DNA of 35,465 nucleotides. Origin: a virus (lineage: Duplodnaviria > Heunggongvirae > Uroviricota > Caudoviricetes). Under the pieces are notes generated by a model. The model searched no databases. It saw only the letters and a list, made by a program, of their open reading frames with translations, and was not told where the DNA came from. Of this stretch, positions 712 through 34,047 are shown piece by piece. The position numbers and the translations under genes were made by a program. The first letter of the stretch is position 1, and the number at the start of each line of letters is the position of its first letter. The stretch is taken from the IMG/VR virus record IMGVR_UViG_2534681764_000015. One strand, written 5' to 3'.

Positions 712-1654
712 ATTGGCAGTAAGAAAAGTTAGTACCGTACATTTCATCATGAAGCATTGCAACATTGCGTTTCTGTTCTTCTTCCTCGTCTACCGCATCA
801 CTAGAAAAATGAGATTTGCCCTTAAAAGAACGAAGCAATTGCAGTGCAGCCATCGGATCACGCATCACATCGATTTTCACTTCTACTTCATCATTTGCGG
901 CCTCATCAGCCGCATTTTCAACTACTGCCACCGGAGCAACTTCTTTAGCTTTCAGTTCTTCAATCTCAGCTTTCTGTGCTTCGATGATCTGGTCTTTTTC
1001 TTCCAGCGCAGCTTTCAGTTCTGCGATCTGTGCTTCCAGTGCAGAGAAACGATCTTCAACAGCAACCGGAGAAACAGCATTAACCTGTGCTTCCAGTTCT
1101 ACGAAAGCGTCGCAAGATTCAATACGTGCTTTTTCTTCACCTTCATATGCAACCAGTTCTACTACTTCTTTCTCAGTAGTGTGGCTGTTAAAGAATACAG
1201 CAAAGTAAGGATTGCCGGATTTGGTGAAGTTCAGTTTAGCTTTTCCGGTAACTTCTTTACGACGACCAAAGGTAATGTTGCAATCAGCGGTATCCTGAAA
1301 ATCCATGTTAGGAGCGGAAACGATAGCAGTATCACCAGCAATCACTAGGTGGAACAGTTCAGAAGAGTTCTTAACGGTGAAAGTAACGATGTGGTCTACT
1401 GCAACGTCTTTAGCAGGTTTAACGCGGTCGATTGCTTTACGAATGCCGTTAGGCAGTTTACCGTCAACACCAAAGCCAGCCGCGATCAGTGCTTCACGAT
1501 GTGCTTTAAAGCCAGCGAAAGCGGATTTCTGCTGCGCAAAGGAAACATGAGCAACAACTTTCGGCTGAATCTTCTTGTTTGCTTCGGTGCCAAATTTGAT
1601 AACTGCTTTAGCGTTGGTTACTTCGTTAGTGAAAAAGTTAGCGGAAAATAACAT
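710..1654 (-). CDS. hypothetical protein with central coiled coil and acidic C-terminal tail (314 aa)
   Basis: long ORF with AGGAG 8 nt upstream of ATG; heptad-like segment ALEAQIAELKAALEEKDQIIEAQKAEIEELKAK; function not recognised. Confidence 0.6.
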   Translation of the reverse strand: MLFSANFFTNEVTNAKAVIKFGTEANKKIQPKVVAHVSFAQQKSAFAGFKAHREALIAAGFGVDGKLPNGIRKAIDRVKPAKDVAVDHIVTFTVKNSSELFHLVIAGDTAIVSAPNMDFQDTADCNITFGRRKEVTGKAKLNFTKSGNPYFAVFFNSHTTEKEVVELVAYEGEEKARIESCDAFVELEAQVNAVSPVAVEDRFSALEAQIAELKAALEEKDQIIEAQKAEIEELKAKEVAPVAVVENAADEAANDEVEVKIDVMRDPMAALQLLRSFKGKSHFSSDAVDEEEEQKRNVAMLHDEMYGTNFSYCQ

Positions 1655-1696
1655 TATAAATACTCCTGTAGAAAGTTAGTTTTAATTGTTCATTTC

Positions 1697-1740
1697 AAGC
1701 CTCCTTTGCTGCAACAAGGGAGGCTTTTTCTTTTTTTAAA
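1697..1740 (+). terminator. rho-independent terminator candidate (plus-strand polarity)
   Basis: hairpin AAGCCTCC...GGAGGCTT with extended stem followed by TTTTTCTTTTTTT. Confidence 0.5.
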
Positions 1741-1769
1741 GCCATCATATAATTCTCAGTGAAAGTGGA

Positions 1770-1949
1770 TTAACAAACTTGAACGTTAATCTTTACCTGA
1801 ATTTCGTATTTCTTCATTAGCTTGTAGAATCCGCTTCTATCAATTCCTTCCTTCTTAAAGAAGTTTTCCCCGCCTCGCTCAGTGTCGCTGTAAAAGCGTT
1901 TAGCAATATCAACAATCATTTCACGAGTGAACTTAACAGGTCTAGCCAT
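1770..1949 (-). CDS. small putative DNA-binding protein, GRP/ARP-motif family (59 aa)
   Basis: ATG at 1949 with GAGGAA 9 nt upstream (ORF track starts at GTG 1964); N-terminal ARPVKFTREMIVDIAKRFY and C-terminal GFYKLMKKYEI motifs shared with 5376..5609. Confidence 0.5.
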   Translation of the reverse strand: MARPVKFTREMIVDIAKRFYSDTERGGENFFKKEGIDRSGFYKLMKKYEIQVKINVQVC

Positions 1950-2048
1950 CAGTCGATTCCTCACATGTGGATTAATAATTTCTTAAAAAAGAGCATTTCG
2001 CTCTGAACACTTGTATTTATAAAATGATTTTCAGAAAACCCTGTAAAA

Positions 2049-2070
2049 CCACTGTATATCCGATCAGTGG
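2049..2070. promoter_or_regulatory. 22-bp palindrome CCACTGTATATCCGATCAGTGG, SOS-box-like operator candidate
   Basis: CTGT-N8-TCAG core, one mismatch from LexA CTGT-N8-ACAG; perfect 6-bp dyad arms. Confidence 0.4.
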
Positions 2071-2133
2071 GAGCACGAATTGCTAAAGAGAAGATTAATT
2101 ATTAATCAATTCGTACAATATTCAACCGAAAAA

Positions 2134-2155
2134 GCACTGTATATCTAACCAGTGC
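2134..2155. promoter_or_regulatory. 22-bp palindrome GCACTGTATATCTAACCAGTGC, second SOS-box-like operator candidate
   Basis: shares ACTGTATATC with first box; outer arm base changed compensatorily so dyad symmetry is kept. Confidence 0.4.
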
Positions 2156-2306
2156 TGTATGAATTAGCAGTGAATCAGGAGATTTTCAGAAGTGAACAAT
2201 CATTTCACACATGTATTTATAACGTGGAAATTCTTGCTTATCATCTATATGGGGACTGTTTAGAAAATTTCAACCCCCACCAGTGAGAAAAAGTATAAAA
2301 TAATCC

Positions 2307-2320
2307 TTGACAGTTGTCAA
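2307..2320. promoter_or_regulatory. palindrome TTGACAGTTGTCAA (operator or -35 candidate)
   Basis: perfect inverted repeat of TTGACA hexamer; related palindrome at 3829..3848. Confidence 0.3.
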
Positions 2321-2516
2321 TACACTTGACCTAAGCGAGAAATGACTATCAAAATTTTTGTTTGAAAATGGTAGATCAGGATTATCAACCTTTATAACCT
2401 ATTATAGCACGGAGACCTTTTGACAATTCTTTTTAAATCATTAACTTACGCCACTTTTTGGTGATTTTTTGATTAAATAATATACAAGAATTTTCTATCA
2501 AAATATTTGATGGGAA

Positions 2517-2711
2517 TTGCCCCTGAAATTCTGAATTTTGCCCCCGAACCAAAATACCCAAGATTCCACTATCCCATTTTTGCCCCTGAAACCCACTATT
2601 TTTGCCCCTGAAATTCTGGGAAACAGTGATTTTGCCCCTCATTTTTGCCCCTGAAATGCCAATAATTGCCCCTGAAAATCTAATTTTTGCCCCTGAAATT
2701 TGCCCCCGAAA
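2517..2711 (+). repeat. array of nine direct iterons, consensus TTTTGCCCCTGAAA
   Basis: copies starting 2517, 2538, 2580, 2602, 2632, 2645, 2666, 2687, 2700; spacings mostly 21 bp multiples; no ORF. Confidence 0.7.
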
Positions 2712-2844
2712 AGGATTGGTAAGAAAAACTCTTTATAAAACATTAACTTAGTGAGGGGTAAAACGGGGAATCGGGCGTGCATAGATATTATATAACACAT
2801 TCGCTACGCTCATGTGTAAAACCAAAAATAACCAAAAAGATATT

Positions 2845-2864
2845 AGGAGGGCTTTGCCCGACTG
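2845..2864 (+). repeat. left copy of 20-bp direct repeat AGGAGGGCTTTGCCCGACTG
   Basis: 19/20 identical to copy at 3238..3257. Confidence 0.6.
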
Positions 2865-2974
2865 CGCGTAGCGCTAACCAATTACTTCTAGTAACAACTA
2901 ATTTAAACTAGATGATACTAGATGGTCTTAGAAGGAATTAACTAGTTTGCTCGCTCGCTTCGCTCACTCTCAAA

Positions 2975-2997
2975 CGTCTGCGACGCCACTGCGTGGC
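2975..2997. promoter_or_regulatory. GC-rich twin palindrome CGTCTGCGACG / GCCACTGCGTGGC
   Basis: two abutting perfect palindromes in an otherwise AT-rich non-coding region; candidate protein-recognition or cleavage site. Confidence 0.3.
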
Positions 2998-3237
2998 ATC
3001 GAGAATCACTTTTGAAAGGATTTTCTTAGAAAGGGATTTTAATACTAGATGATAACTGATTCTAGTAAACGAACGAAGTGAGTAACAATCACTTTCTAGA
3101 AAGGTATTGGTTATCCCTTCGGGATCGCAACCTGCGGTTGCTGAAATTGCTTCCTGATTATTCTTTCTTCGAAAGAAAGATTCTTATATTCTAAAGATAC
3201 TTCTTCGTTTTGATGATGATTTAATCAAAATCTATGA

Positions 3238-3257
3238 AGGAGGGCTATGCCCGACTG
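3238..3257 (+). repeat. right copy of 20-bp direct repeat AGGAGGGCTATGCCCGACTG
   Basis: 19/20 identical to copy at 2845..2864; lies about 90 bp upstream of gene 3348. Confidence 0.6.
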
Positions 3258-3347
3258 AATACCAATCCCTTCCAAATAGATAAAAAATTCTCGTTATAAA
3301 TACTAGTGTAATTTGTTTGATTCACTTTCTTTTAGAGGATTTCCACT

Positions 3348-3806
3348 ATGAACCACAAGATGACTACCACTACTCCTTTTATCCTTCTGGGTCTGGATTC
3401 TGATAGCTTCCACAATGACAAGTTAATGAAGATGTTCCGTGAACGTGGTTATAACATCCTTTTCAACTCTGATGAATCCCATTTCTCTAGTGCATGGTAT
3501 GCGTTTTGCCGTAATAAGAAGCCGACCATTGTTGTTAACGTCTTCACCGATGAAGAACGCTTAAAGTACCAGAATCTACCAGCAATTATTGTTCGTGATG
3601 ATCTGCCGTTTCAAGTCCGTTCCGGTGACATTGACCTGGGTAGCTTCTTGACTCTTCGTGAACTGGATGAAGCAATGTTTAATTACGGTAAAGAAACCGC
3701 TCAGGAAGCCCCAGAACAAGATGAGGAAGACGAAGACTACGCACCAATCGCTTTCTCTTCTCACGGTGGCTTCTACGGTTACGATGAAGGCTTAGATATG
3801 CTGTAA
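3348..3806 (+). CDS. hypothetical early protein with acidic C-terminal tail (152 aa)
   Basis: ORF with AGAGGA RBS; C-terminal EAPEQDEEDEDYAPIAF; first gene after the 1.4-kb non-coding region. Confidence 0.6.
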   Translation: MNHKMTTTTPFILLGLDSDSFHNDKLMKMFRERGYNILFNSDESHFSSAWYAFCRNKKPTIVVNVFTDEERLKYQNLPAIIVRDDLPFQVRSGDIDLGSFLTLRELDEAMFNYGKETAQEAPEQDEEDEDYAPIAFSSHGGFYGYDEGLDML

Positions 3807-3841
3807 GTTAGGTCAACCCTTTGGCGTCTTGTCAAGGGGTA

Positions 3842-3870
3842 TTGACAAAAATTTCTGACTTTTTTATGAT
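3842..3870 (+). promoter_or_regulatory. sigma70-type promoter TTGACA-N17-TATGAT
   Basis: consensus -35 at 3842-3847, 17-bp spacer, near-consensus -10 at 3865-3870, about 57 bp upstream of ATG 3927; -35 is the right half of inverted repeat 3829..3848. Confidence 0.55.
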
Positions 3871-3926
3871 TATCGCACTTGACAACTTTGAACCTATTTG
3901 ACCTAGATTTGTAAAGAGGATGTAAC

Positions 3927-4259
3927 ATGAAAGAATTTACCATCACTAAATCCCTGTATGACTGGACTGTTAAAATCTCCGGCAAAACCGTTTCTGTAAC
4001 CCCTAGCCATGTAGAAAATGATTGGGGTGTATCCCGTGAAACTATCTCCCGTAGTATGCATGTTCCGTTTGATCTGATGACCTTAACTGGTATTCATGCA
4101 ATGCTGGAAGTTCGCGAGCAATTCGAAGCTGGTAATCACAATGCGACTCCAGTTAACAATCACCTTCTTACTAATGAAGAACGTGAAATCATCGAAAATT
4201 GGCGTTATGAATATGCGATTCCTTATTATGAAGAAGACCAAGTAGAAATCGATTGGTAA
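3927..4259 (+). CDS. hypothetical protein (110 aa)
   Basis: ORF downstream of strong promoter with AAGAGGA RBS. Confidence 0.6.
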   Translation: MKEFTITKSLYDWTVKISGKTVSVTPSHVENDWGVSRETISRSMHVPFDLMTLTGIHAMLEVREQFEAGNHNATPVNNHLLTNEEREIIENWRYEYAIPYYEEDQVEIDW

Positions 4260-4348
4260 TAAATTTCTATCATAAATAAAATTGTTCCGGTTGAGATGCC
4301 GGAACTAGGAGGACCAAATCACTAAACCGTTTAAGGGGAATTTTTACT

Positions 4349-5182
4349 ATGAATACTGTTACTACTATGAATACTGCTGTTAAAACTGCTTCCGTGTCTC
4401 TGGTTGTTGATAACACCAAACCACTGACCATGTCTTCTCGTCAGATCGCTGAATTTACCGGAAAAGAACACCACAAAGTTAAAGTTGATATAACTAAGAT
4501 GTTGAATGCTCTAGGTTATGAAGATCACGCGAAGTTTCGCGTCATCTATTTTGACCAATACGGACGCGAACAAAACGAATATCAACTAGACGAAGAAATG
4601 ACTCTGACTCTTGTCACTGGTTACGATGTTAAGCGTCGAATGGTTGTTATTCAGGAATGGAAACGACTGAAAGAAGAAAATGAAAAACTGCGTTCTCAGC
4701 AAGTCAACCCATACGCAAACATGACTAAGCTCGATTGGATTCGTGAGGCAATGGAATTAGAAGCCGCAAACGAACAACTGATTCAAGAAAAAGAACAATT
4801 AGTTGATCTTCATATCCGTAAAGCTATTGATGCACACAGTCTTAGCCGCTTATTAGGCGAAAAACGAGGCTCTACGAAGGTACAAATGATTCTGAAAGGT
4901 TTATGTGCTGCTGGTGTTCTTGAGCGTCGTCTGGATGCTTCTGGTAAGCCTAAAGGCTATGATCTGCTTCCTCCTGGCTATATGTTCGCTCGTATGTCGG
5001 CACACGGTCAGATCGAGTTCACTGCTGATGCTATCCCGCATCTCGTAAAACTCGGATTGCTTGAAGAAGAAAAGGCCGCAACTTTGAAATTGCCACAGCC
5101 GAATAACTCACGAGCAATCATTAATAACACTGCTTTGCTGATTCGTCAGAATGCTGGCTCTCTGGAAGTCTTCGGACTGTAA
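4349..5182 (+). CDS. Rha-family phage regulatory protein / antirepressor-like (277 aa)
   Basis: N-terminal LTMSSRQIAEFTGKEHHKVKVDITKMLNAL...YFDQYGREQNEYQLDEEMTLTLVTGYD matches the Phage_pRha signature as recalled; coiled-coil middle. Confidence 0.65.
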   Translation: MNTVTTMNTAVKTASVSLVVDNTKPLTMSSRQIAEFTGKEHHKVKVDITKMLNALGYEDHAKFRVIYFDQYGREQNEYQLDEEMTLTLVTGYDVKRRMVVIQEWKRLKEENEKLRSQQVNPYANMTKLDWIREAMELEAANEQLIQEKEQLVDLHIRKAIDAHSLSRLLGEKRGSTKVQMILKGLCAAGVLERRLDASGKPKGYDLLPPGYMFARMSAHGQIEFTADAIPHLVKLGLLEEEKAATLKLPQPNNSRAIINNTALLIRQNAGSLEVFGL

Positions 5183-5188
5183 TAATTT

Positions 5189-5216
5189 TTGCCCCTGAAT
5201 TTCAGGGGCTTTTTTG
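5189..5216 (+). terminator. rho-independent terminator built from the iteron motif
   Basis: TTTTGCCCCTGAATTTCAGGGGC hairpin followed by TTTTTTG, directly after stop of 4349..5182. Confidence 0.65.
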
Positions 5217-5375
5217 TATCTGTAGATGCGCTGAACTTTAAGCGCATCCCTCCAGATTTGGATGCATCTATAGATCAGTCCAGATTTGGACTCAACTTAG
5301 AAATGAGCGCAGTTTTGCGCCGATTGTTTTACATACAAAAAAGCCACTCCGAAGAGTGGCAAAGAGAATCAAAAC

Positions 5376-5609
5376 TCAAAAACCTGTTGCTTCTACGATC
5401 TGACCATCACCGATCTGAACATAGAATTTAATGTCCAACTTCTTCATATTCTTATAGAATTGGGCGATTGAGATCCCATGTTCACTAAGAATCTGTTCTT
5501 TCGCTTCCTTACCACGATCCGCTGTATAATAAGCGTAGGCAATATCAGCCATCTGTTCAGCGTTAAAACGGGCAGGGCGACCGCGAGTAGCTTTAGTAGT
5601 CATAGTCAT
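5376..5609 (-). CDS. small putative DNA-binding protein, GRP-motif family (77 aa)
   Basis: ATG at 5609 with GGAGA upstream (track start 5636 is GTG); TRGRPARFNAEQMADIAYAYY and FYKNMKKLDI motifs paralogous to 1770..1949. Confidence 0.5.
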   Translation of the reverse strand: MTMTTKATRGRPARFNAEQMADIAYAYYTADRGKEAKEQILSEHGISIAQFYKNMKKLDIKFYVQIGDGQIVEATGF

Positions 5610-5638
5610 TTTCTCCAAATTAAAGTGAATGTTCACCT

Positions 5639-6244
5639 TTATTTAGAGGACTTACATTTTATCGGAAAAAGTTCTCCATCGTCAACCGACATAAAGAACT
5701 CTGCCTTAATCCCGTACTTCTTCAACCGTGAATAATATGTACCCCGACTAATATCAACCTTGCGCAGCACTTCGAAGAACTCTTTAGGATTCCTGTAATA
5801 GTGGCTATATCGCACGTTAGCGAGTTCTACAAACAATTCCCTTGAATCACCATAGCCTTTCTTAAAAGCCACATTACGATAGCGTGTAATGGCATGATTC
5901 AATCTCTTCTGTTTAAGCACTTCCCTAATCGGTGTCCACTGCAACCGATAGATAGGACCGTCATCTACTCGATAGAATCGCTTAATGTCAAAATCAAACC
6001 ATTCACGAACTCTATTAAACTCTGTCTGTGATGTACGATGCTTCTTAAAGAAGTTATGAATATCGGTATACCCATGATCGCGATACAACTCGATTAAAAT
6101 CTGTTTAGCTTCCTCACGACTAAAGCCAGATGTTGTGTAATCAGTCTTCTTGTGATGGTGCTTAACTGGCAAACGATATTCATGATCGGTACAACAAGAA
6201 AAGGCTAATTCTAATGCATCTCTTTGTTGCTGATTAATTAGCAT
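5639..6244 (-). CDS. hypothetical protein with C-terminal HTH-like motif (201 aa)
   Basis: ORF divergent from terminase; C-terminal ISRGTYYSRLKKYGI resembles the C-terminal motif of the two small GRP-family proteins. Confidence 0.55.
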   Translation of the reverse strand: MLINQQQRDALELAFSCCTDHEYRLPVKHHHKKTDYTTSGFSREEAKQILIELYRDHGYTDIHNFFKKHRTSQTEFNRVREWFDFDIKRFYRVDDGPIYRLQWTPIREVLKQKRLNHAITRYRNVAFKKGYGDSRELFVELANVRYSHYYRNPKEFFEVLRKVDISRGTYYSRLKKYGIKAEFFMSVDDGELFPIKCKSSK

Positions 6245-6331
6245 ACACCCCCCTTAAATCTTAATACCCGTATTTATCAAAATATCAACAATTTAATAAA
6301 TACCTTCATATTTCGTAATGAGGGTAATTAC

Positions 6332-8236
6332 ATGAAACTGATTTCTAATAAGGCAAAATTAAAAAAGATTCTCAGAAATATCTCTGCTGCAATTCGCCCA
6401 CCTAAAGCCATGAAACCTAGCGAATGGGTAGAGGCTAATGTAGTTGCAACCGATGGTGTTAAAGCCGGATCGCTAATTAAATTGCATCCTTTCCAACGTG
6501 GGATGATGGACGCGATCACCGAAGATAGGCGAAAAATTGTGCTAAAGTGCTCGGCGCAGTTGGGTAAAACTCTTGTGCTAAACGGTATTATCTTTCATAG
6601 GATCGCCAGCAACCCCACTAATATAGGTGTTTTGCAAGCAAACGTCCGCGAGTTGAATAGCTGGATCGCGGGTAAGGTGAAGCCAGTATTAGAGGCAACC
6701 CCAGAATTAAAGGCGATGATCACCGACAAGTCAGATCGCAATGCCGTTAACAACTCATCGATTATTCAGCTTCGTAACGGATCATTCATGTATTTCATGT
6801 CGTTGAATAGTCCATCACATCTTCGCGGTAAAACACTACCTTTGATTATTCTTGATGAAGTTGATGCGGCTGATGAGTCAGACGAAGGGAACCCGATCCA
6901 GCTAGCGGAACAACGCGCAACCACTTTCGGTGATGATGCAAGGATCGTAATTGCTTCTACTCCAACTTCGCGGGATGGGGCGATAAACCAACAATGGGAA
7001 CTCTCGGATAAAAGAAAATACCACGTCGTTTGCCAGCATTGCGGACACAAACACGTAATGGAATGGAGTAGAGTATTCTTTGATTGGCATGTAATCAATG
7101 GTAAATCACTGCCGAATCCAGACACAGCCGTTTACCGTTGCCCGTCATGTGAAACTGATTGGTCAGAACCAGATCGCCTCCGTGCTGTTGCTCAGGGAGA
7201 ATGGGTCGCCACCGAACCAAATGCGGAAGTAATCGGTTTTCATGCTAACCGCCTTATGTCTCCGTTTAGTTCTATCCGTGCGTGTGTGGTGGACTTTGCT
7301 GATAGCTACGCGAATATGTCGCTGGCAACGTTCTATAATGTGGTGCTCGGTGAAACCTTCGATGATCTTAACGAAGACCGCACAGCCGACGAACTGGAAA
7401 CGCTGAAAACTGACATTAGCTTAGATAATATTCCTGATGATGTTTTGGCTCTGGTAGGTGGAGTTGACCAGCAAAAAGACCGTCTGGAATCTACCTTGCT
7501 GGGTATCTCTCGTAAAGGGATATGCGTAGTTGATCACCGATCATTCTATGATGTGAACTGCGAACGCCACGAATCACCAGCATATGACCAGCTTTACAAC
7601 TTCCTGAAAGCAAAATTCTATACCCGATCCGGTCAACGAATCCCGATGCTATCCGCTTTCGTGGACTCATCAAACGGACGAGCTACGCAAGTGATCTACC
7701 GCTTTTGCACTAGGTGGCAAAATCTATGCGCCATTAAGGGCGCAAGTAATGTTGATGCTCCAATCCTTCCGGTAAAAGACACAAGAACGGGCGGTTTTAC
7801 CCTTAAAATTCTGGGCGTAAACAACCTTAAGACGATGATCCGTGAAATGATTAACCGGAACTTGAGAGACAGCGATCCTCATACGGTCTTCCAGATTGGT
7901 GACGTTCCTGATGACTACTGCGAGCAATTGCTATCTGAACAGTTGAAACGGCAGGGTAATACCACACGTTGGGTAAAAGTTGGTCAGCAACGCAACGAGG
8001 GCTTGGACTGCCTAACCTATGCGGTGGCTAGTTATCGCCATGTACTCAATAAAATGTCATGGGAAAAACTCGAAGCCATCAAAGATAGTTTGAACCGTGA
8101 ACCAGAAGAATCCGTAGAAGCTCCTAAATCGCAATCTGACGAGCAAATCGAAGAAAATAAGCCAATCACACGACCACAACGTAAAAACATCGCCAGACGC
8201 CCAAATAGAGGCCGTAGCTGGGTAACATCGTTCTAA
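6332..8236 (+). CDS. terminase large subunit, GpA (lambda) type (634 aa)
   Basis: Walker A-like CSAQLGKT, Walker B-like LIILDEVDAADE, Cys cluster CQHCGH...CPSC, size and position ahead of portal. Confidence 0.85.
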   Translation: MKLISNKAKLKKILRNISAAIRPPKAMKPSEWVEANVVATDGVKAGSLIKLHPFQRGMMDAITEDRRKIVLKCSAQLGKTLVLNGIIFHRIASNPTNIGVLQANVRELNSWIAGKVKPVLEATPELKAMITDKSDRNAVNNSSIIQLRNGSFMYFMSLNSPSHLRGKTLPLIILDEVDAADESDEGNPIQLAEQRATTFGDDARIVIASTPTSRDGAINQQWELSDKRKYHVVCQHCGHKHVMEWSRVFFDWHVINGKSLPNPDTAVYRCPSCETDWSEPDRLRAVAQGEWVATEPNAEVIGFHANRLMSPFSSIRACVVDFADSYANMSLATFYNVVLGETFDDLNEDRTADELETLKTDISLDNIPDDVLALVGGVDQQKDRLESTLLGISRKGICVVDHRSFYDVNCERHESPAYDQLYNFLKAKFYTRSGQRIPMLSAFVDSSNGRATQVIYRFCTRWQNLCAIKGASNVDAPILPVKDTRTGGFTLKILGVNNLKTMIREMINRNLRDSDPHTVFQIGDVPDDYCEQLLSEQLKRQGNTTRWVKVGQQRNEGLDCLTYAVASYRHVLNKMSWEKLEAIKDSLNREPEESVEAPKSQSDEQIEENKPITRPQRKNIARRPNRGRSWVTSF

Positions 8237-12574: not shown

Positions 12575-12865
12575 ATGTTCAAATTATCAGAATCACAATT
12601 ATCAAGAATGTTTAAGAGTGCTCCTGTATTTTCGGTGGAAGGTGGTAAATCAATTCGTGCTTACCATGAAATTACTACTACCGACGAATCAGGGGTAATG
12701 ACAGAGACAGAATTTCTATTTTGTCGTGAGGGAGACTTAAATCAGGGTGATATTGTCATTGTAGAAAACCAGCGTTTCAAAGTTCAATATATTAAGCGCA
12801 ATGGTGACAATACTTCTGATTGCTTTATTACTCTGGCAGGGGGTACACATGCTCGCTACCGTTAA
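12575..12865 (+). CDS. head-tail joining/completion protein candidate (96 aa)
   Basis: small ORF after capsid with AAGGGGGTAA RBS; assignment by position only. Confidence 0.4.
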   Translation: MFKLSESQLSRMFKSAPVFSVEGGKSIRAYHEITTTDESGVMTETEFLFCREGDLNQGDIVIVENQRFKVQYIKRNGDNTSDCFITLAGGTHARYR

Positions 12866-13271
12866 TAACATGCCTAGACTGAAAATCAAACGCGCCTTGC
12901 AAGATATTATCGAACAAGATCTAGGTCTGGCTTTAAACGTAGAACAAACCCAAACCGGATTTTCGGAATCTGTTGTGTGTTGGATTACTGGCATGAATGA
13001 AACTTATACGCGTGTTCGTGGCGGTAATGCAATGCAAGCTGAATGCGTTATCGAAATGCAGTTATATTCTCAGATTCATGAAACGAAAATTCATGAGGGT
13101 ATTTGCCAGATAATCCAGATTCAGCCGGATAACCCACGTTTTAAAGATTTGGGCTTCTCTATTTCAGATATCACTCCAGTAGCTTCTAATACCGATTATG
13201 ACGATGATTCTAGTGATGGGGGTATCGTTGGGACACTTAGCCTTAAATTTTCTTATCTAGCGCGTTTTTAA
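12849..13271 (+). CDS. head-tail joining/completion protein candidate (about 140 aa)
   Basis: ORF track 12801..13271; ATG at 12849 preferred because of GGGGG upstream; overlaps previous gene by 17 nt. Confidence 0.4.
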   Translation: MLATVNNMPRLKIKRALQDIIEQDLGLALNVEQTQTGFSESVVCWITGMNETYTRVRGGNAMQAECVIEMQLYSQIHETKIHEGICQIIQIQPDNPRFKDLGFSISDITPVASNTDYDDDSSDGGIVGTLSLKFSYLARF

Positions 13272-14187: not shown

Positions 14188-17100
14188 ATGCAATCAATCC
14201 AATTTAAACGAACTAATGTTTCTGGCAAAAAGCCAACGCCGGAACAATTACAGGTCGGTGAGGTAGCAATCAACCTTAAAGACCATGTTATTTTTACCAA
14301 AGACCGAGATCATGAAGTAGTTCAAATCTCTGTTTCTCCTGAAACTCACGCGGCACTAGAATCTAAAGTTGATGCTAACAAACAAGAATTGGATAGCACA
14401 ATTGCAGTAAATGACCGCAATATTCACGCTAAAGTAGATGAAATTAAACAAACTACTGATGCAACCATCGCAGCAAATCACGCAGAAATTAACAATAAAG
14501 TTGATGTAATTAAACGCGAAACCGACGCGACAATCGAGGCCAATAAAAATAAAGCTGCTTCCGATCTTGCTGGTGTTAAAGCTGAATTGTCGGATACCAT
14601 CAACGCTAATAAAAATGCGGCTGCTGTAGCAACTCAGGAACTGGACACCCGCATCAATAAAAAAGTTGATGATATTAAATCCCGTACCGATGCAACCATC
14701 GTAAGCAATCACAAAGCAATCAATGACAAAGTTGATTTGATTAAGGCAGAAACTGACCGCACTATCGCAGCAAATCACGCCTATGCGGAAAATCAGTTAA
14801 CTGACACCTACAATAACCTTACTGGTGTGATTGCAGCCAATAAGCAAGAGGCAGCGGATAACGTCGCAGCATTAACCCGTGATGTTGAAGCCAAAAATAC
14901 AGCAATTCATAGCAAAGTTGACAATAACAAGTCTTACACTGATTCTGAATTGGCACGCTTAGAAAGCCGTATTGATGCAGCCGATGGATCAAGTGATGGT
15001 AAGTACATCAAAAAGCACGTAAACACTTGCACTGATGGCTATTTGCTGTCTAAGACCGCAAACCCTTTTGATGATCCGAGTGCTCTTAATCTTGATTACT
15101 TTGGTGCATTTCGCATGAATGACCTGGCGGGTCATATTGCAATGATCTTGCATGTTCCGCACCCATCCGGCGTTAATCATGCTCGTGGTTTTGAGTTCAC
15201 TTATGGGTCTAATCCGGTTCCTACGGTAAGAACATACGGCTATGATGAATTGGGACATTTGGCATATTCTCACCGCATGTATCATGAAGGTGATAAACCT
15301 ACTCCGGCTGAAATTGGCGCATATTCGAAAGCAGAAATTGACCGACTGTTCCAGAAGACGCTTAATTTTGGTATCGAGGGTGGTTGGTTTAAACTAGGCA
15401 CTTTGACAATGCCACAACAACACGGTCGCACGGCTAAGATCCGTTTGGTTGGTGGTAACGGTTATAACGTCGGGATGAATGGACAAGCCAATATTATCGA
15501 ATTGGTGATCCGATGCGGCAACAATAGCCCGAAAGGTGTTGTATTCAATGCGTATTATACTATTTGGCATCATGAACAACATTTTTGCGCTATTCCAACC
15601 GATGGCGACAATTACGATCTTTACGCTTACTACGGTGCACATACAGGATTTGTTTTAGCAGAATATCAAGTTTCTTCCGGTGGTGTTTCTTTAAACCTGT
15701 TGGATACTCCTGAATATCTGGGTGGTGAAAAACCTGTTGCAGACGAAATTTTTGATGCTCTTAACATTTCATCGTTCAATAACTTTAGCAACCGTGGAAC
15801 GTTAAATTTTGCTGGAAACCATCAAGGCCAATACGACATTGAGCATTTGAACGAACAGCAAACAAATGCCAAGAAAATGTTGCGTCGCTTCCGTAGTTCT
15901 GCTCCTGCCACTATCTGGCATGAGACAGTTGATGATAACGCATATCGTCTTGCTACTGGATACGAAGATACAAATCAGGAATTATTGCTGACAGTAACAT
16001 CCGGGTTACATGTCAAGAAATTAACATTGGATGGTGGTGTTGGTGGAAATTCTGGTATTGATATTCGTCGAGGACCAAACGAAGCAAGCCATTTTAATTT
16101 CATGGATTATCGCACTGGACAAGATGTTCGTAATGGTTGGTTTGGTTTTGGTGATGGAACAACCAAAGATTTTATTTGGTGGAACGACAACGGTCAAAAC
16201 TCTATAAACCTGATTGCAGATGGTGAATTACATATTTCTGGCGGTAAAGGCCAGAAAATTGTAATGAATAGCGAAGTTGCATTATCTGAAAATGCTCGTT
16301 TGGCTGTTAAAGGTGGCAATTATGGTTTGATTTTACGCAATGATGGTTCTAGCTTCCATATTCTTACTACCGATTTAAAAGATTCTTTTGGTAGTTGGAA
16401 TAATCGCAGACCATTCAGCTATGATTTTGCGGACGGTGGATTGTATTTAGGTGGTACTGCAACCGCTCGTTGTTTGCATCTCGGAATTGATGGTAGTACC
16501 CGTCTTGAAGACAACCTTTTCTTTAAAGCTGGTTCTCGTCAATCTATGGACTATATGGAACTCGTCCATTGGGGTGCAAGCAATACAGGTCGAAATAACG
16601 TTTTAAGTCTTCGTGACTCAAAAGGATTTTTCGCAGAATTTGAACGATTGGGTGATAATACCATTAAAAACACCTTCTTCGGGAAACTTAAAGTTAATCG
16701 TGGTTCTGACGCAATCGTCATGAATGCCGAAACGGGTGATTCGTCTATATATTTGCTGGGTACTTGTGCTGATAATAACAACTGGTATATCGGTAAAGGT
16801 GGTGCTGATAATGGATTAGCGTTCTATAGCTATGCTACTAATGCTGCTATCAATATTACAAACGCGGGTGATATCGCGCTAAGTCCAAAAGGTGTCGAAA
16901 TGACTCATGTCAATAACGTTCGATTCTATGTTCATGGTGAACGTTGGACTGCTAGCCAATCTGGAGGTTGGGGCGATCAATGGGGATTAGAAGCGCCGAT
17001 ATTTGTCGATCATGGTTATGTAGGACCAGATAGCTATTATCCAATTATTAAAGGAAGAAGTTTAATCACCAATCAAGGGTATACAACTGCCGTCGATTTT

Positions 17101-17598
17101 GGTATGCGTCGTGTTCCTCAAAATTGGGGGCAAGCTATTATTCGTGTTGGATCTGCGGAGGCATCGCCAGCGGCTGGTCATCCTCAAGCGGTGTTTGAAT
17201 TTCATCATGATGGTACTTTCTATTCTCCTGGTAATGGTAACTTTAACGATGTTTATATTCGTTCCGATGGTCGTCTGAAAATTAATGTTGAAGATTACGA
17301 AGAAAATGCGGTGGATAAGGTAAATAAACTCAAAGTTAAAACCTACGATAAAGTTAAATCTCTTAATGACCGAGAAGTTATAGGTCATGAGATTGGTATT
17401 ATCGCACAGGATTTACAAGAGGTATTACCGGAAGCTGTTAAAACCGCAAAAATTGGTGGTCTTGATAACCCAGAAGAAATTTTAACAATTTCAAACTCCG
17501 CAGTGAACGCGCTTTTAATTAAAGCGGTCCAAGAAATGAGCGAAGAAAATAAACTTCTTCGTGAACGTCTTGCTGCAATTGAAGCTAAATTAGGGTAA
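14188..17598 (+). CDS. long tail fiber with C-terminal intramolecular chaperone (peptidase S74-like) domain (1136 aa)
   Basis: N-terminal MQSIQFKRTNVSGKKPTPEQLQVGEVAINLKD fiber-anchor-like motif; 24-aa coiled-coil repeats; C-terminal SDGRLK...HEIGIIAQDLQEVLPE...LLRERLAAIEAKLG resembles the self-cleaving chaperone of T5 pb1 and endosialidases. Confidence 0.8.
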   Translation: MQSIQFKRTNVSGKKPTPEQLQVGEVAINLKDHVIFTKDRDHEVVQISVSPETHAALESKVDANKQELDSTIAVNDRNIHAKVDEIKQTTDATIAANHAEINNKVDVIKRETDATIEANKNKAASDLAGVKAELSDTINANKNAAAVATQELDTRINKKVDDIKSRTDATIVSNHKAINDKVDLIKAETDRTIAANHAYAENQLTDTYNNLTGVIAANKQEAADNVAALTRDVEAKNTAIHSKVDNNKSYTDSELARLESRIDAADGSSDGKYIKKHVNTCTDGYLLSKTANPFDDPSALNLDYFGAFRMNDLAGHIAMILHVPHPSGVNHARGFEFTYGSNPVPTVRTYGYDELGHLAYSHRMYHEGDKPTPAEIGAYSKAEIDRLFQKTLNFGIEGGWFKLGTLTMPQQHGRTAKIRLVGGNGYNVGMNGQANIIELVIRCGNNSPKGVVFNAYYTIWHHEQHFCAIPTDGDNYDLYAYYGAHTGFVLAEYQVSSGGVSLNLLDTPEYLGGEKPVADEIFDALNISSFNNFSNRGTLNFAGNHQGQYDIEHLNEQQTNAKKMLRRFRSSAPATIWHETVDDNAYRLATGYEDTNQELLLTVTSGLHVKKLTLDGGVGGNSGIDIRRGPNEASHFNFMDYRTGQDVRNGWFGFGDGTTKDFIWWNDNGQNSINLIADGELHISGGKGQKIVMNSEVALSENARLAVKGGNYGLILRNDGSSFHILTTDLKDSFGSWNNRRPFSYDFADGGLYLGGTATARCLHLGIDGSTRLEDNLFFKAGSRQSMDYMELVHWGASNTGRNNVLSLRDSKGFFAEFERLGDNTIKNTFFGKLKVNRGSDAIVMNAETGDSSIYLLGTCADNNNWYIGKGGADNGLAFYSYATNAAINITNAGDIALSPKGVEMTHVNNVRFYVHGERWTASQSGGWGDQWGLEAPIFVDHGYVGPDSYYPIIKGRSLITNQGYTTAVDFGMRRVPQNWGQAIIRVGSAEASPAAGHPQAVFEFHHDGTFYSPGNGNFNDVYIRSDGRLKINVEDYEENAVDKVNKLKVKTYDKVKSLNDREVIGHEIGIIAQDLQEVLPEAVKTAKIGGLDNPEEILTISNSAVNALLIKAVQEMSEENKLLRERLAAIEAKLG
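14356..14800 (+). repeat. in-frame tandem repeats (about 72 nt / 24 aa) inside tail fiber gene
   Basis: at least five KVDxIKxxTDATIxANHxxIN units. Confidence 0.6.
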
Positions 17599-17636
17599 TT
17601 GGAAAGCGGGGAGAAATCTCCGCTAAGGATTCTTAT

Positions 17637-17933
17637 ATGGGATATTGGGTAAGTAGTGAAATTAATACTAAAATCGATGCTTTAAAATGGCATGTATTTG
17701 ATATTCCTAACGGCTATGGTACTGCTCGTGCTGGTGTCGCTGTAATGCGTCATAATGCTGGTGGTGGGTGGTCTGATGCACATATTAACGTAGATGGTTT
17801 GACCGTTGCTCGTCGTCGTGGTGGGACCAATTGGGGATCTACTATAAATTCGTTTGTTCCTGCTGGCTGCACCGTCTCCTTTGGTTTAGGGGGTGAAGGT
17901 GGTGTTGAATATTTTAAATTCATGGAGTTTTAA
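17637..17933 (+). CDS. small Gly-rich protein, paralog A of tandem triplet (98 aa)
   Basis: shares FDIPNGY/W, Gly-rich loop and TVSFxLG...YFKF with the next two ORFs. Confidence 0.6.
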   Translation: MGYWVSSEINTKIDALKWHVFDIPNGYGTARAGVAVMRHNAGGGWSDAHINVDGLTVARRRGGTNWGSTINSFVPAGCTVSFGLGGEGGVEYFKFMEF

Positions 17934-17935
17934 TT

Positions 17936-18241
17936 ATGGCTGGATGGATAAATCAAAGAATGTCAAACGCTATTAGTATTTGGGCTAATGGTGGATATTT
18001 TGATATCCCCAACGGCTGGGTTACTGATTCATGCGGAATTGTTTTTGCTCATATGGAAGCCATTAACGGTGCTGGTGATCTTGATTCTGAATTGGCTGTA
18101 AATGGATTGATTGAATCAGGTCATCATGCTGGTGATGCTGGGAGTTGGGGCGCTAGTTCTTTAGTTGGCGCTGGTGCTACCGTTAGCTTTACATTGGGTA
18201 AAGGTAGTTTGCATTATTTTAAATTCAGGAGAATGCACTAA
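17936..18241 (+). CDS. small Gly-rich protein, paralog B of tandem triplet (101 aa)
   Basis: YFDIPNGW, DSEL, ATVSFTLG, YFKF motifs; start 2 nt after stop of paralog A. Confidence 0.6.
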   Translation: MAGWINQRMSNAISIWANGGYFDIPNGWVTDSCGIVFAHMEAINGAGDLDSELAVNGLIESGHHAGDAGSWGASSLVGAGATVSFTLGKGSLHYFKFRRMH

Positions 18242-18543
18242 TGGCATTTTGGGTAGATGGCGCTTTGGGGAATAGGGCGGGTAAAGCAAATCAAGGATGG
18301 TTTGATATTCCTAACGGTTGGACAGCCGACGCTTTCGGGACTATTTCATTCTGTGCTCATTCTTCCGGTGGTGGCGGTGGTGACTCTGAATTGCTTATTC
18401 ATGGTTTGTGTGTTTCTGGAAGCCATAAGGGTCATGATTGGGGACAGATTCATTCTTGTATTGCACCGCAAGGGGCGGTAATTACCGTTAGCACAAATAG
18501 GGGGATCGCTCATCTTCGTTATAGACGTTTGAGCAACCGCTAA
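18241..18543 (+). CDS. small Gly-rich protein, paralog C of tandem triplet (100 aa)
   Basis: WFDIPNGW, GGGGGDSEL motifs; ATG overlaps stop of paralog B (TAATG). Confidence 0.6.
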   Translation: MAFWVDGALGNRAGKANQGWFDIPNGWTADAFGTISFCAHSSGGGGGDSELLIHGLCVSGSHKGHDWGQIHSCIAPQGAVITVSTNRGIAHLRYRRLSNR

Positions 18544-29443: not shown

Positions 29444-30481
29444 ATGGAGATTTTATTTGCTGAATATATCAACTACACCGGATTTACAAGAAAAACGCCT
29501 CTTGACTATGAACCTATTGCCATTAAACGTTGTGATGAGTTGGGGTACATCTATAACGGTTTTGTTGTGCCGTGGAAAGGGCAACATACACCCGTTTCTA
29601 TAACCTGCAAGAAACATAGCACAACGCGAACAATTGCTTTCAAAACTCTTAAAAAACAAGGTGCGTGTCTTGAATGCTATAAAGAATCATTAAAACTTCC
29701 TAAGAAAAAGAATAGAGATAAGGAAGCTGTATTAGATAAAGCAAGCAATGTGCTGGAACGCAAAGATATGGTTTTAGTTGGATTGTTAGAAGATTATAAA
29801 GGATTAGACACAAAAGTTTCTTATAAGTGCAATTGCTGTGATACTGCATACGAAACCATAATCACTAGAATCATAAACGATGATGCTGGGTGTCGTCATT
29901 GTGGGTCAATTAAGAGAGGAATCAATAAGAGAAAACACACAGACGACGAATGGATGGATCTAATTGAGCATGAATGCAGGAACAAACGACTTGAATTAAT
30001 AGAACAACCTAAATCTCCTATATTGTCAACATCAAAAATACACATCAAATGTGAAAAAGGTCATCTTTCTGATTCTTTGGTAGTTTATGGTTTAGTGTAT
30101 GAAAACTTAGGCTGTCCATGTTGTTCTAAAAATGGTTATAACAGAAGTAAGTCGGGAGTTTTCTACGTTCAACAGGTCGGAGATTATATAAAATATGGAA
30201 TAACAAACCATCTAAACCCACAAAAGCGAGTAACTCAACAAGCTAGGGAATCAGGGTTAAAACACAAGTTATTGTGGTATATAACGTTCGGTGACGGAAA
30301 AGTTGCCAATGACCTAGAGTATTCCGTAAAACATAACATAGGAAATCACGCTGCACCAAAAGAACTAATCCCAGACGGATATACAGAAACATGTGACATA
30401 ACCAAAGAAGCGCAGATTAGAAAAATGGCAATGGATTTTTGTAAAAACTCCAACAACTATAAAATTACATATAGGGGGTAA
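29444..30481 (+). CDS. Cys-rich protein with C-terminal GIY-YIG / T5orf172-like motif, paralog 1 (345 aa)
   Basis: three CxxC-type pairs (CKKH...CLEC, CNCC...CRHCG, CEKGH...CPCC) then GVFYVQQVGDYIKYGIT...RV; homologous to 31247..32245. Confidence 0.6.
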   Translation: MEILFAEYINYTGFTRKTPLDYEPIAIKRCDELGYIYNGFVVPWKGQHTPVSITCKKHSTTRTIAFKTLKKQGACLECYKESLKLPKKKNRDKEAVLDKASNVLERKDMVLVGLLEDYKGLDTKVSYKCNCCDTAYETIITRIINDDAGCRHCGSIKRGINKRKHTDDEWMDLIEHECRNKRLELIEQPKSPILSTSKIHIKCEKGHLSDSLVVYGLVYENLGCPCCSKNGYNRSKSGVFYVQQVGDYIKYGITNHLNPQKRVTQQARESGLKHKLLWYITFGDGKVANDLEYSVKHNIGNHAAPKELIPDGYTETCDITKEAQIRKMAMDFCKNSNNYKITYRG

Positions 30482-31246: not shown

Positions 31247-32245
31247 ATGAATACTACTTTAGCAAAGGATATCGAATTTACCGCAAAAAGCAAACGTGCG
31301 ACCCCTCCGGTCGAATATGAAACCAGAATCATTAAAGTTTGTCAAGTGCATGGATGGTTATACAGTGGTTTTGTGCTTCCTGTAAAGAAACCATTCCAGA
31401 ACACCAAAGTTTGCATAGAAGTTAACGGAAAGGTTAAAACGCCATGTATTAGTCATGTTCTAACTGGTCAGTTTACTGGCAAAGATAGAGTATCACCGCC
31501 TAAGAAGGAGTTTAGATTTACCGAAGAAGAACACTTAGAAAACGCTCGCAAGTTCTACAAGCCGATAGGGTGGGATGTGTTAGGTCTGGCTGAACCTTAT
31601 CAGGGTGTTGACACTAAACTAATTCTTCGTTGTAAGTGCCACGGAAAGATTCACAAGAAAGGTGATTTACACAATAACCGCAGACAAGGCGGGTTAACAT
31701 GCCCTTTGGTTAGGGGGGTACTTAAATCAATTCAGAATGGTAGAAAACAGGTTATCAGAAACAAGTTTGCACAGCGCCCTATGCACTTTTATCTAATTCG
31801 TGTTGGCGAGAAGTTTTTCAAATATGGAATTACCACTCGCAAAGATCCGATGCAACGGGTAAGAGAACACCAGAAGCACACCAGCGAGAAAATCACCTTT
31901 GAATGCTCACATTTGTTTAACATTGGATGGAAAGCTGGTGATTTAGAAATGGGGATTAAAAAGAATATTCAGGGCAAGAAAATCCCACGTAAGGTAATGA
32001 ATAGCGGATTCACAGAAACGCTACCGATTAGCAAGCTGAAAGATGTTAAATCATTCATCAATGAATACATCCACACCAACCCATCTAAGCCAATGTATTT
32101 TGATGATACCAACGCAATCAATCTGAACAACTACATTAGTGATGAAGACATAGAACGAGATTTATCGCAGTGGATGAATGCACCGTTAGCTGATTTAACA
32201 CCGGAAGACTTAGAACTCGATTTAAGCCCTTTAGAGGCTCTTTAA
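31247..32245 (+). CDS. GIY-YIG / T5orf172-like motif protein, paralog 2, Cys-depleted (332 aa)
   Basis: aligns with 29444..30481 at EYETRIIKVC...GFVLP, YQGVDTK, FYLIRVGEKFFKYGIT...QRV, GFTET. Confidence 0.6.
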   Translation: MNTTLAKDIEFTAKSKRATPPVEYETRIIKVCQVHGWLYSGFVLPVKKPFQNTKVCIEVNGKVKTPCISHVLTGQFTGKDRVSPPKKEFRFTEEEHLENARKFYKPIGWDVLGLAEPYQGVDTKLILRCKCHGKIHKKGDLHNNRRQGGLTCPLVRGVLKSIQNGRKQVIRNKFAQRPMHFYLIRVGEKFFKYGITTRKDPMQRVREHQKHTSEKITFECSHLFNIGWKAGDLEMGIKKNIQGKKIPRKVMNSGFTETLPISKLKDVKSFINEYIHTNPSKPMYFDDTNAINLNNYISDEDIERDLSQWMNAPLADLTPEDLELDLSPLEAL

Positions 32246-33998: not shown

Positions 33999-34010
33999 AC
34001 CATTTCCAAA

Positions 34011-34047
34011 CAAAAACGCCCCTACCGCGTATTATAACGATAGGGGC
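34011..34047 (-). terminator. rho-independent terminator candidate for gene 34062..34481
   Basis: minus-strand hairpin GCCCCTA...TAGGGGC followed by GTTTTTG. Confidence 0.45.

Follow-up and report, generated by a model that had tools for sequence, protein, structure and literature searches.

A hairpin-rich non-coding region upstream of the early operon of an Escherichia coli prophage and its possible role as an early leader

We analyzed a 413-bp region (positions 2845-3257) of a 35,465-bp viral DNA, IMG/VR record IMGVR_UViG_2534681764_000015 (the window, that is, the whole stretch analyzed). Gene content and chromosomal relatives identify the window as a temperate prophage of Escherichia coli. 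We found that the 413 bp are not one element. They are the larger part of a ~640-bp non-coding leader that lies between an array of direct repeats (iterons) and a rightward early operon, which encodes, in order, a protein of 152 amino acids (aa), a 110-aa protein, and a Rha-like regulator. The best reading of this non-coding, non-random region is that it has a structured-RNA or regulatory role. More specifically, the 413 bp may be part of a cis-regulatory early leader on the + strand that combines promoters with attenuating or stabilizing stem-loops, a reading that we favor tentatively.

Several lines of evidence led us to this reading. It is flanked by divergent regulatory genes on one side and the first early gene on the other, and transcription from a divergent promoter and operator at 2292-2355 would read through it. 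Part of it (3154-3235) is homologous to a class of phage cassettes with measured promoter and attenuator activity. It contains a strand-specific motif that is oriented in the sense of the early genes. The hairpins appear to be a selected feature, based on their enrichment, on stems that are kept while loops vary, and on one compensatory change. Last, the region is not coding, because insertions and deletions break every small reading frame.

Results

The region is rich in hairpins and does not code for protein

The repeats, palindromes, and hairpins that a first-pass annotation had described in this region are all present where it placed them. A 20-bp direct repeat occurs as AGGAGGGCTTTGCCCGACTG at 2845-2864 (repeat 1; family D7) and as AGGAGGGCTATGCCCGACTG at 3238-3257 (repeat 2), identical at 19 of 20 positions. 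Allowing up to three mismatches, these are the only two copies on either strand of the window, and 100 shuffles gave no match. The GC-rich island consists of CGTC-TGC-GACG (2975-2985) and GCCAC-TGC-GTGGC (2985-2997), with G2985 common to both. Two adjacent hairpins, ATCCC-TTC-GGGAT (3113-3125) and GCAACC-TGC-GGTTGC (3127-3141), are separated by one base.

There are further hairpins beyond those in the first-pass annotation. Both repeats are themselves hairpins (GGGC-N3-GCCC). Repeat 1 reads AG/GA/GGGC-TTT-GCCC/GA/CU followed by G, and repeat 2 is the same hairpin with the loop TAT. Repeat 1 has a partner, GCGC-GTA-GCGC at 2864-2874, and together they make a first pair of hairpins; the GC-rich island is the second pair and 3113-3141 the third, all given here on the + strand. 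An AT-rich hairpin, TCTTTCTT-CGA-AAGAAAGA, lies at 3162-3180. Of 19 perfect GC-rich triloop hairpins called in the window, eight are within the 413 bp (the eight calls overlap and correspond to seven distinct hairpins), a density of ~19/kb compared to 0.54/kb window-wide, or ~36-fold enrichment. Predicted folding was far stronger than that of shuffled sequences on both strands (z = -5.3 and -5.5).

Short repeats fill the space between the hairpins. An AT-rich block at 2877-2950 is made of repeats that contain CTAG: ACTAGATG twice (2907 and 2917), TTCTAGTAAC, and AACTAGTTT (families D8 and D9; inverted pairs I5 and I20). These are probably protein-binding sites. Farther right are TCGCTTCGCTCAC (2955-2967, + strand) and, within 3002-3112, copies of ATCACTTT (3005 and 3088), GAAAGG-N-ATT (3029 and 3099), and a third ACTAGATG (3044) (family D13; inverted pairs I1 and I14). 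An imperfect palindrome with 25-nt arms is centered on TCTAGA (3074-3121). CTAG is enriched about ten-fold, with eight sites in 2845-3347 (16/kb, compared to 1.7/kb window-wide). Some of the CTAG repeats look like tandem operator half-sites (AACTAGTTA...).

The 413 bp contain no complete open reading frame (ORF) of at least 40 aa. The only one that touches the region (2777-2911, 44 aa, GTG start) overlaps its left edge. Smaller frames, for example one starting at an ATG at 3234 (MKEGYARL...), were rejected because hairpin insertions or deletions of 1-2 nt break them in relatives. A scan of the region for tRNA and tmRNA genes found none, and an Rfam scan of 1600-6400 at permissive thresholds gave sub-threshold noise only (best score 31 bits, against a cut-off of 81 bits). 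The proposal that the region is non-coding, structured, and non-random holds.

Stems are kept while modules are swapped among relatives

We gathered relatives of this region, 12 chromosomal and 22 from IMG/VR, plus further IMG/VR copies found via the repeat pattern. The window has ~11 direct TTTTGCCCCTGAAA repeats (the iterons) at 2515-2710 (+ strand), outside the 413 bp, and an inverted copy at 2752-2763 (families D1 and D2; inverted pair I12). Relatives with this TGCCCC type of iteron are called T1 here, and those with CCTACAC iterons T2; a 28-sequence alignment of T1 and T2 relatives was used to compare stems and loops. Two other relatives have TCCCCG repeats (L015) or TCCCCG and ATGTACA repeats (L017).

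The type of iteron array covaries with the neighboring protein in 29 of 29 cases, a 314-aa protein with T1 and a 333-aa protein with T2. The two proteins are unrelated apart from a coiled coil; it is with their unrelated N-terminal halves that the array type covaries. Array and protein could constitute a specificity module for immunity, replication, or partition. The Rha-like protein was rejected as the iteron binder: it does not covary, as a T2 relative (L024) has a Rha that is 100% identical. A perfect palindrome of the iteron repeat, GCCCCTGA-ATT-TCAGGGGC, is found after the Rha-like gene (5191-5209).

The left half of the 413 bp (2845 to ~3000) travels with the module made up of the iterons and the gene for the putative binding protein. 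In T2 relatives, ACGGC-GTA-GCCGT stands where repeat 1 would be, the CTAG block (2877-2950) is missing, and a single different hairpin, ACGCC-TAC-GGCGT, replaces the twin palindromes, with no counterpart of the second island hairpin (2985-2997). The invariant TCGCTTCGCTCAC block, with columns common to both main iteron types, lies inside this otherwise swapped module. In L015 and L017, other GC-rich hairpins are again present in unrelated replacement modules. Rightward from ~3000, the sequence is common to T1 and T2. Repeat 2 and its flanks ATGAAGGAGG and GACTGAAT are in all 28 aligned relatives (ATGAAGGAGG identical in 26, GACTGAAT in 28) as well as in L015 and L017; the one relative without them is the deletion variant L027.

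Within the hairpins, it is mostly the loops that vary. The loop of repeat 1 is TTT in the window and GTA in most relatives. The stem at 2864-2874 is invariant (28/28) and its loop alternates between GTA and GAA. In the third pair (3113-3141), all 11 base pairs are invariant in the 28 sequences and the loops are TGC, TTC, or TTT. Repeat 2 occurs as GGGC-TTT, GGGC-TTTA, GGC-GAA, and GGGC-TA, the stem shortening symmetrically. The hairpin at 2975-2985 has one compensatory change, U-A to C-G, which divides the two main groups (13 vs 15 of 28; the window has U-A). The AT-rich hairpin at 3162-3180 is not conserved and is perfect only in the window. Invariant pairs alone prove nothing about folding. 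It is the contrast between loops and stems, and the recurrence of hairpins in non-homologous modules, that argues that folding matters. Covariance analysis across homologs had been suggested as a check; within the family, covariation is limited to one event. Distant homologs that would allow more are not to be had, since a search of species-representative genomes by protein pattern and by DNA pattern found no relatives of the prophage family.

The 413 bp had been described as a discrete unit bounded by the direct repeats. The relatives speak against this. None of the ~40 gains or loses the segment from repeat to repeat, T2 relatives lack repeat 1 only, and the point at which modules are swapped (~3000) is inside the region.

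Individual relatives have natural variants of the region. L027 has a deletion equivalent to 3090-3265, between CAATC(A/C)CTT repeats, that removes the third pair, the promoter block described below, and repeat 2. L004 has an IS5 insertion near 3055, four relatives (L002, L003, L025, and L035) have extra repeat units after 3060, and in L033 the palindrome at 3074-3121 is perfect, with ~21-bp arms.

Part of the region is homologous to promoter cassettes of T4-type phages

We found that 3154-3235 is 77-78% identical over 81 nt (E about 1e-7) to intergenic cassettes in 59 RB49-like (Krischvirus) phages, which have 1-4 copies of the matching cassette per genome. In RB49, the matching copy is upstream of an orphan gene and follows two abutting hairpins, GTCGC-TTT-GCGAC and GTGCC-GTA-GGCAC. 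Promoter-early stem-loop (PeSL) cassettes are known from RB49/phi1-type T4-like phages (Arbiol et al. 2010, PMC2839356; Comeau et al. 2014, PMC4122927). As promoters, the RB49/phi1 cassettes gave ~13,000 Miller units, and the drop in lacZ expression caused by a PeSL stem-loop matched that caused by the rrnB T1 terminator (PMC2839356). Stems of the type GGGC...GCCC have been noted for PeSL cassettes and for T4 deletion hot spots (PMC2839356, PMC4122927).

The PeSL-like block of the prophage (3154-3238, + strand) contains the AT-rich hairpin at 3162-3180 and a candidate promoter preceded by an AT-rich tract: a -35 hexamer TTGATG (3210-3215), a 17-nt spacer, and a -10 hexamer TATGAA (3233-3238) at which repeat 2 begins. 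A self-BLAST of 3150-3260 found no other copy in the window except the 20-nt repeat. There is a similar arrangement before repeat 1, where a hairpin, ACACAT-N11-ATGTGT (2795-2818), and an A-rich tract precede a -10-like GATATT (2839-2844) that abuts the repeat and may be part of a promoter. This block (2795-2844, + strand) is kept in relatives with the window's iteron type. Downstream of the 413 bp, within 3272-3347 (+ strand), a second candidate promoter has a putative -10, TATAAA (3295-3300), that is present in all variants; it is followed by a Shine-Dalgarno sequence, AGAGGA (3334-3339), and the ATG (3348) of the 152-aa orphan gene on the + strand.

The long tail-fiber genes of the prophage (14188-18543) are 80-97% identical to those of RB49-like virulent T4-type phages, and the closest match is 96.8%, to KFS-EC. 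This level of identity indicates that DNA exchange between the prophage and RB49-like phages is real and recent.

The 20-nt repeat matches the core of a hairpin motif of mobile elements

A search of IMG/VR with AGGAGGGC-N3-GCCCGACTG recovered, besides the prophage family, unrelated phage contigs in which the motif caps a long hairpin near genes of IS21 and IS3 insertion sequences (IS) (L038, L043, L047, L059, and L068-L069). A metagenome scan with GGAGGGC-N3-GCCCGACTGGAG yielded at least 120 contigs (L070-L189) from soil, water, sludge, and gut, ranging from 34 to 67% GC. The description of the motif that follows holds among the matches listed. Its consensus is a 5' arm ending in AAC, then GGAA, GGAGGGC-GTA-GCCC-GACTG, GA, and a 3' arm beginning with GTT. 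Outer helices are 16 bp long at the median, and GNA accounts for 75% of the loops. The inner fold (A-U, G-C, tandem G.A/A.G, GGGC/GCCC, triloop) is the prophage 20-mer.

The outer helix covaries strongly. In 56 instances with distinct arms, there were double-sided changes at 15 of 16 outer pairs, and 95.9% of cells were paired compared to 63.7% in shuffles (no shuffle out of 500 came up to the motif). Slid controls scored 0.16 or less for covariation, compared to 0.78 for the motif. When stem mismatches were scored symmetrically, there were 31 G.U and 4 A.C. Because G.U is tolerated and A.C is not, we infer that the motif folds as one strand, in the sense equal to the + strand of the prophage, that is, the sense of the early genes.

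The motif is found next to genes for IS21 IstA/IstB, IS3-type integrase-core transposases, an IS256-type Mutator transposase, DUF1670 proteins, and a tyrosine recombinase. It lies within ~50 nt of the tip of the element, where contigs often break, either 35-113 nt before the transposase start and on the same strand or just past the stop codon of the last gene and on the opposite strand. It always faces inward. Since contigs break at these elements, none of the metagenome contigs checked contained an insertion sequence with its two ends. An Rfam scan of the motif-bearing loci at permissive thresholds gave no match, and searching the literature for the motif sequence and for IS-associated structured RNAs turned up nothing relevant in the searchable literature.

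We built a covariance model (R1) from the widespread motif. Its top two matches in the window are repeat 1 (19.4 bits, E = 0.018, model positions 20-39) and repeat 2 (3236-3259; 18.5 bits, E = 0.028, model positions 18-41). By chance, a match to the 16 fixed bases should occur ~1e-5 times in the window (estimated as length x 2 strands / 4^16); there are two matches. It is possible, if rather doubtful, that the 20-nt repeat is a minimal copy of an uncatalogued and phylogenetically very broad structured single-strand element, of RNA or possibly DNA. In this view a long variable helix bears the near-invariant cap GGAA-GGAGGGC-GNA-GCCC-GACUG-GA, whose tandem G.A pairs would be sheared. Such a cap, which contains a perfect Shine-Dalgarno sequence, in hosts of 34-67% GC would point to recognition by a universal cellular machine such as the ribosome, RNA polymerase, a nuclease, or the replisome. 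Mobile DNA could thus have a regulatory RNA, insulator, or ribozyme of a new class, which the prophage borrowed to control its early operon.

A proposed early leader

In the reading that we favor, the leader would be transcribed on the + strand and would consist of stacked promoter-plus-stem-loop cassettes. Rightward transcription would start from weak sigma-70 promoters: the first ends at 2844, the second is at 3210-3238, and there may be a third at 3272-3300. The nascent RNA would form the three abutting GC-rich triloop pairs and the two repeat hairpins, the latter directly after -10-like hexamers. These hairpins may attenuate or insulate incoming transcription, cap and stabilize the 5' ends of early transcripts, or both. 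The CTAG, ATCACTTT, and GAAAGG-N-ATT repeats would be binding sites for regulators.

Several observations weigh against an early leader of this kind. A terminator scan found none in 2845-3257, and no hairpin there has a T-run after it, so classical intrinsic termination is not expected. The widespread motif also has no consistent T-tract after it (10 of 70 among the matches listed). The -10-like hexamers GATATT and TATGAA (CATGAA in some relatives) are weak and were missed by a consensus scan. TATGAA lacks the final T of a good -10: where RB49 has TATATT, the prophage has TATGAA with GGAGGGC directly following, and repeat 2 thus sits at the end of a -10 that has been degraded. The wobble bias of the motif, as G.T, fits single-stranded DNA too. 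In addition, the strand on which the triloops read G-N-A is not the same throughout: it is the + strand in repeat 1 and its partner, and the - strand in each of the four hairpins that form the second and third pairs. C-GNA-G triloops are unusually stable DNA mini-hairpins, and the switch in strand makes a role at the level of DNA possible.

Alternative explanations

A replication origin, one of the candidates first put forward for this region, has some evidence on its side and is the alternative that we take most seriously, but we consider it unlikely. It would comprise the iterons (2515-2710) and the hairpin-rich, AT-rich region, AT-rich at 2877-2950, with the hairpins as single-strand initiation or primosome signals, for the + strand on the left and the - strand on the right. 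This distribution is that of the C-GNA-G triloops, and CTG directly follows the repeat hairpin. The iterons and the covarying putative binding protein are immediately upstream and swap together with the left half. In addition, no replication gene was recognized in the ~37-kb phage, and the origin and its initiator are therefore among the unknowns. A related motif faces inward from the ends of IS3-type, IS21, and IS256-family elements, and according to PMC3299598 these families transpose via a replicated figure-of-eight and minicircle. On the other side, we found no DnaA boxes and no clustering of GATC, which is depleted around the region (3 in the 1.38 kb of 1965-3347, compared to 4.6/kb overall). 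The minimum of the cumulative GC skew is near 6 kb and not at the 413 bp, the hairpins are very short (4-6 bp), and L027 is naturally deleted for 3090-3265. The iteron module, whose protein has no recognizable domain, could equally be a repressor and its operators.

In another reading, with a marginally lower probability than the origin, the region is mainly a double-stranded, operator- or enhancer-like platform where the 314-aa protein, a 64-aa helix-turn-helix protein, or Rha binds the CTAG, ATCACTTT, and GAAAGG-N-ATT repeats and the palindromes, and the hairpins have no single-strand role. Short repeats are dense in both orientations and their copy number varies among relatives, the left half covaries with the specificity module, and the palindrome at 3074-3121 has been perfected in L033. 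However, the GC-rich stems all differ in sequence and no single DNA-binding protein explains them, and the variation confined to loops, the symmetric shortening of repeat 2, and the wobble bias of the motif argue for folding of a single strand.

It is improbable that the region specifies one or more trans-acting small RNAs, for example one transcribed on the - strand from a promoter-like site (3088-3059, 9 of 12 matches) to the second hairpin pair (2997-2975), which on that strand is followed by TTTGAGAG. The strong folding would fit, but Rfam gave no match whatever the threshold, no complementarity to a target turned up, and the promoter-like site is not conserved where the repeat block is inserted.

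Two other early proposals are very improbable. A cosN-like packaging site at the twin palindromes would suit a phage whose large terminase is of the lambda gpA type (a cos is expected somewhere) and an island with partial two-fold symmetry, but L016, L019, and L021, with large terminase genes that are 93-96% identical, have another hairpin, a single one, at this place and no second palindrome; between the site and the large terminase gene, which is 3.3 kb downstream, there is a leftward gene; and the sole Nu1-like gene ends just before window position 1. A small mobile insertion (a miniature transposon) with a 20-bp target duplication is about as improbable: there is a 19/20 direct repeat with copies 393 bp apart, of a sequence otherwise typical of insertion-sequence ends, but the repeats are direct with no terminal inverted repeats, each is a functional-looking hairpin conserved with its flanks, T2 relatives have only repeat 2, the interior is mosaic, and none of the ~40 relatives is polymorphic for presence or absence at the repeat boundaries.

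Genomic setting

The region sits in a 1.4-kb stretch without genes (1965-3347). To the left of this stretch are two leftward genes, one for the 64-aa helix-turn-helix-like protein and one for the 314-aa coiled-coil protein. Their promoter, which is leftward and near-consensus (TTGACA-17-TATACT), overlaps the palindrome TTGACAGTTGTCAA (2292-2355). A divergent rightward promoter-like site adjoins this promoter and shares the palindrome, which is likely an operator. Five relatives (L008, L010, L014, L027, and L035) have an unrelated version of 1965-2500. Rightward from here are the iteron array, the 413 bp, the 152-aa orphan gene at 3348, the 110-aa gene, and the gene for the Rha-like regulator. 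The 152-aa protein has no relative in PHROG, Pfam, or PDB. PDB sequence searches with the 314-, 201-, and 152-aa proteins, and a large protein-database search with the 314-aa protein, found only 'hypothetical' relatives from Escherichia and Shigella.

Close relatives of 2000-3400 are chromosomal in 57 of 5426 complete E. coli genomes, and a search of a plasmid collection with the region gave no matches. In strain PEC41 the prophage is ~36.5 kb and interrupts ycdX. From the result with species-representative genomes, the prophage family appears to be confined to Escherichia/Shigella. The window encodes a large terminase of the lambda gpA type (6332-8236; phrog_15, E = 1e-139), a portal protein, a protease-capsid fusion, a tape-measure protein, an endolysin, and a large serine recombinase (32319-34013, - strand). 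In the ~37-kb phage (window 1-35465 plus 8400-10700 of L001), we recognized no gene for replication, for a repressor, or for a small terminase. The sole Nu1-like match is weak (E = 0.018); it adjoins the attachment junction and is separated from the large terminase gene by 7.5 kb. Position 1 of the window falls exactly after this gene of the PEC41 prophage. Two paralogous proteins (29444-30481 and 31247-32245; phrog_681, 'endonuclease') flank the lysis genes, and the first has a weak, sub-threshold CapR-like match at its N terminus. ARAGORN called a 91-nt tRNA-Glu at 13036-13126 (- strand) within an ORF (12801-13271), probably a false positive.

Discussion

Our results locate the control region of the early operon of this prophage family. 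The region is built of exchangeable modules: an iteron array with the gene for its binding protein, hairpin cassettes, and a promoter cassette common to virulent T4-type phages. Regulatory DNA, and not tail fibers alone, has been exchanged between temperate and virulent lifestyles. The hairpin motif shows very strong covariation and occurs at the ends of several transposon families and in many habitats, with no Rfam entry. If it is a true functional RNA or single-stranded DNA signal, then it would be a general and testable control element of mobile DNA.

The region resembles several known systems in part. Like G4- and phiX-type single-strand initiation signals and iteron origins, it has stable GNA-loop hairpins beside iterons, and CTG after a hairpin. 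The prophage hairpins are much smaller, and there are no DnaA boxes, GATC clusters, or identified initiator.

There is also a likeness to lambda nut (boxB) and HK022 put sites, as small hairpins, some in pairs 0-1 nt apart, in the early leader of a temperate coliphage, downstream of (here putative) early promoters. Judging from the sequence, a boxA-like CGCTCAC block precedes one of the prophage hairpin pairs. The boxB hairpin has a pentaloop and the put site is a fold of ~65 nt, whereas the stems in the prophage measure 4-6 bp and carry triloops. A protein resembling N or Q was not recognized in the phage, and there was no Rfam match.

Both prophage repeats give the 20-nt inner hairpin of the R1 motif exactly, and repeat 2 also has the 5' GAA. 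The prophage copies differ from the motif in that they lack the outer helix (closing ..AAC/GUU..) and the 3' GAG; pairing between their flanks extends to no more than 2-3 bp. Near them in the window there is neither a transposase gene nor the end of an insertion sequence, and the prophage has two direct copies, 393 bp apart.

The region can also be compared to the PeSL cassettes. These differ in some respects from the prophage, which is temperate, with a lambda-type head and a serine recombinase, and is not of the T4 type; prophages are not mentioned in the PeSL papers (PMC2839356, PMC4122927). There is one homologous copy in the window, compared to dozens that flank shuffled genes in T4-type phages, and the prophage stacks several hairpin pairs with no genes between them and has no sign of cassette-mediated gene shuffling. 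As in RB49, two abutting GC-rich hairpins (here 3113-3141) precede the promoter block. In both, stem-loops and an AT-rich tract are followed by sigma-70 -35 and -10 hexamers (candidate ones, with a weak -10, in the prophage), and a stem-loop can directly follow the -10. Both are intergenic and end at the Shine-Dalgarno sequence and ATG of an orphan gene, here that of the 152-aa protein at 3348. Stable stem-loops adjoin the promoter (a candidate one in the prophage) in both, and in the prophage the pair upstream and repeat 2 right after the -10 are conserved in 28 of 28 relatives. The reach of PeSL-type cassettes thus extends to a temperate phage that is not T4-like, where they are stacked with extra hairpin pairs.

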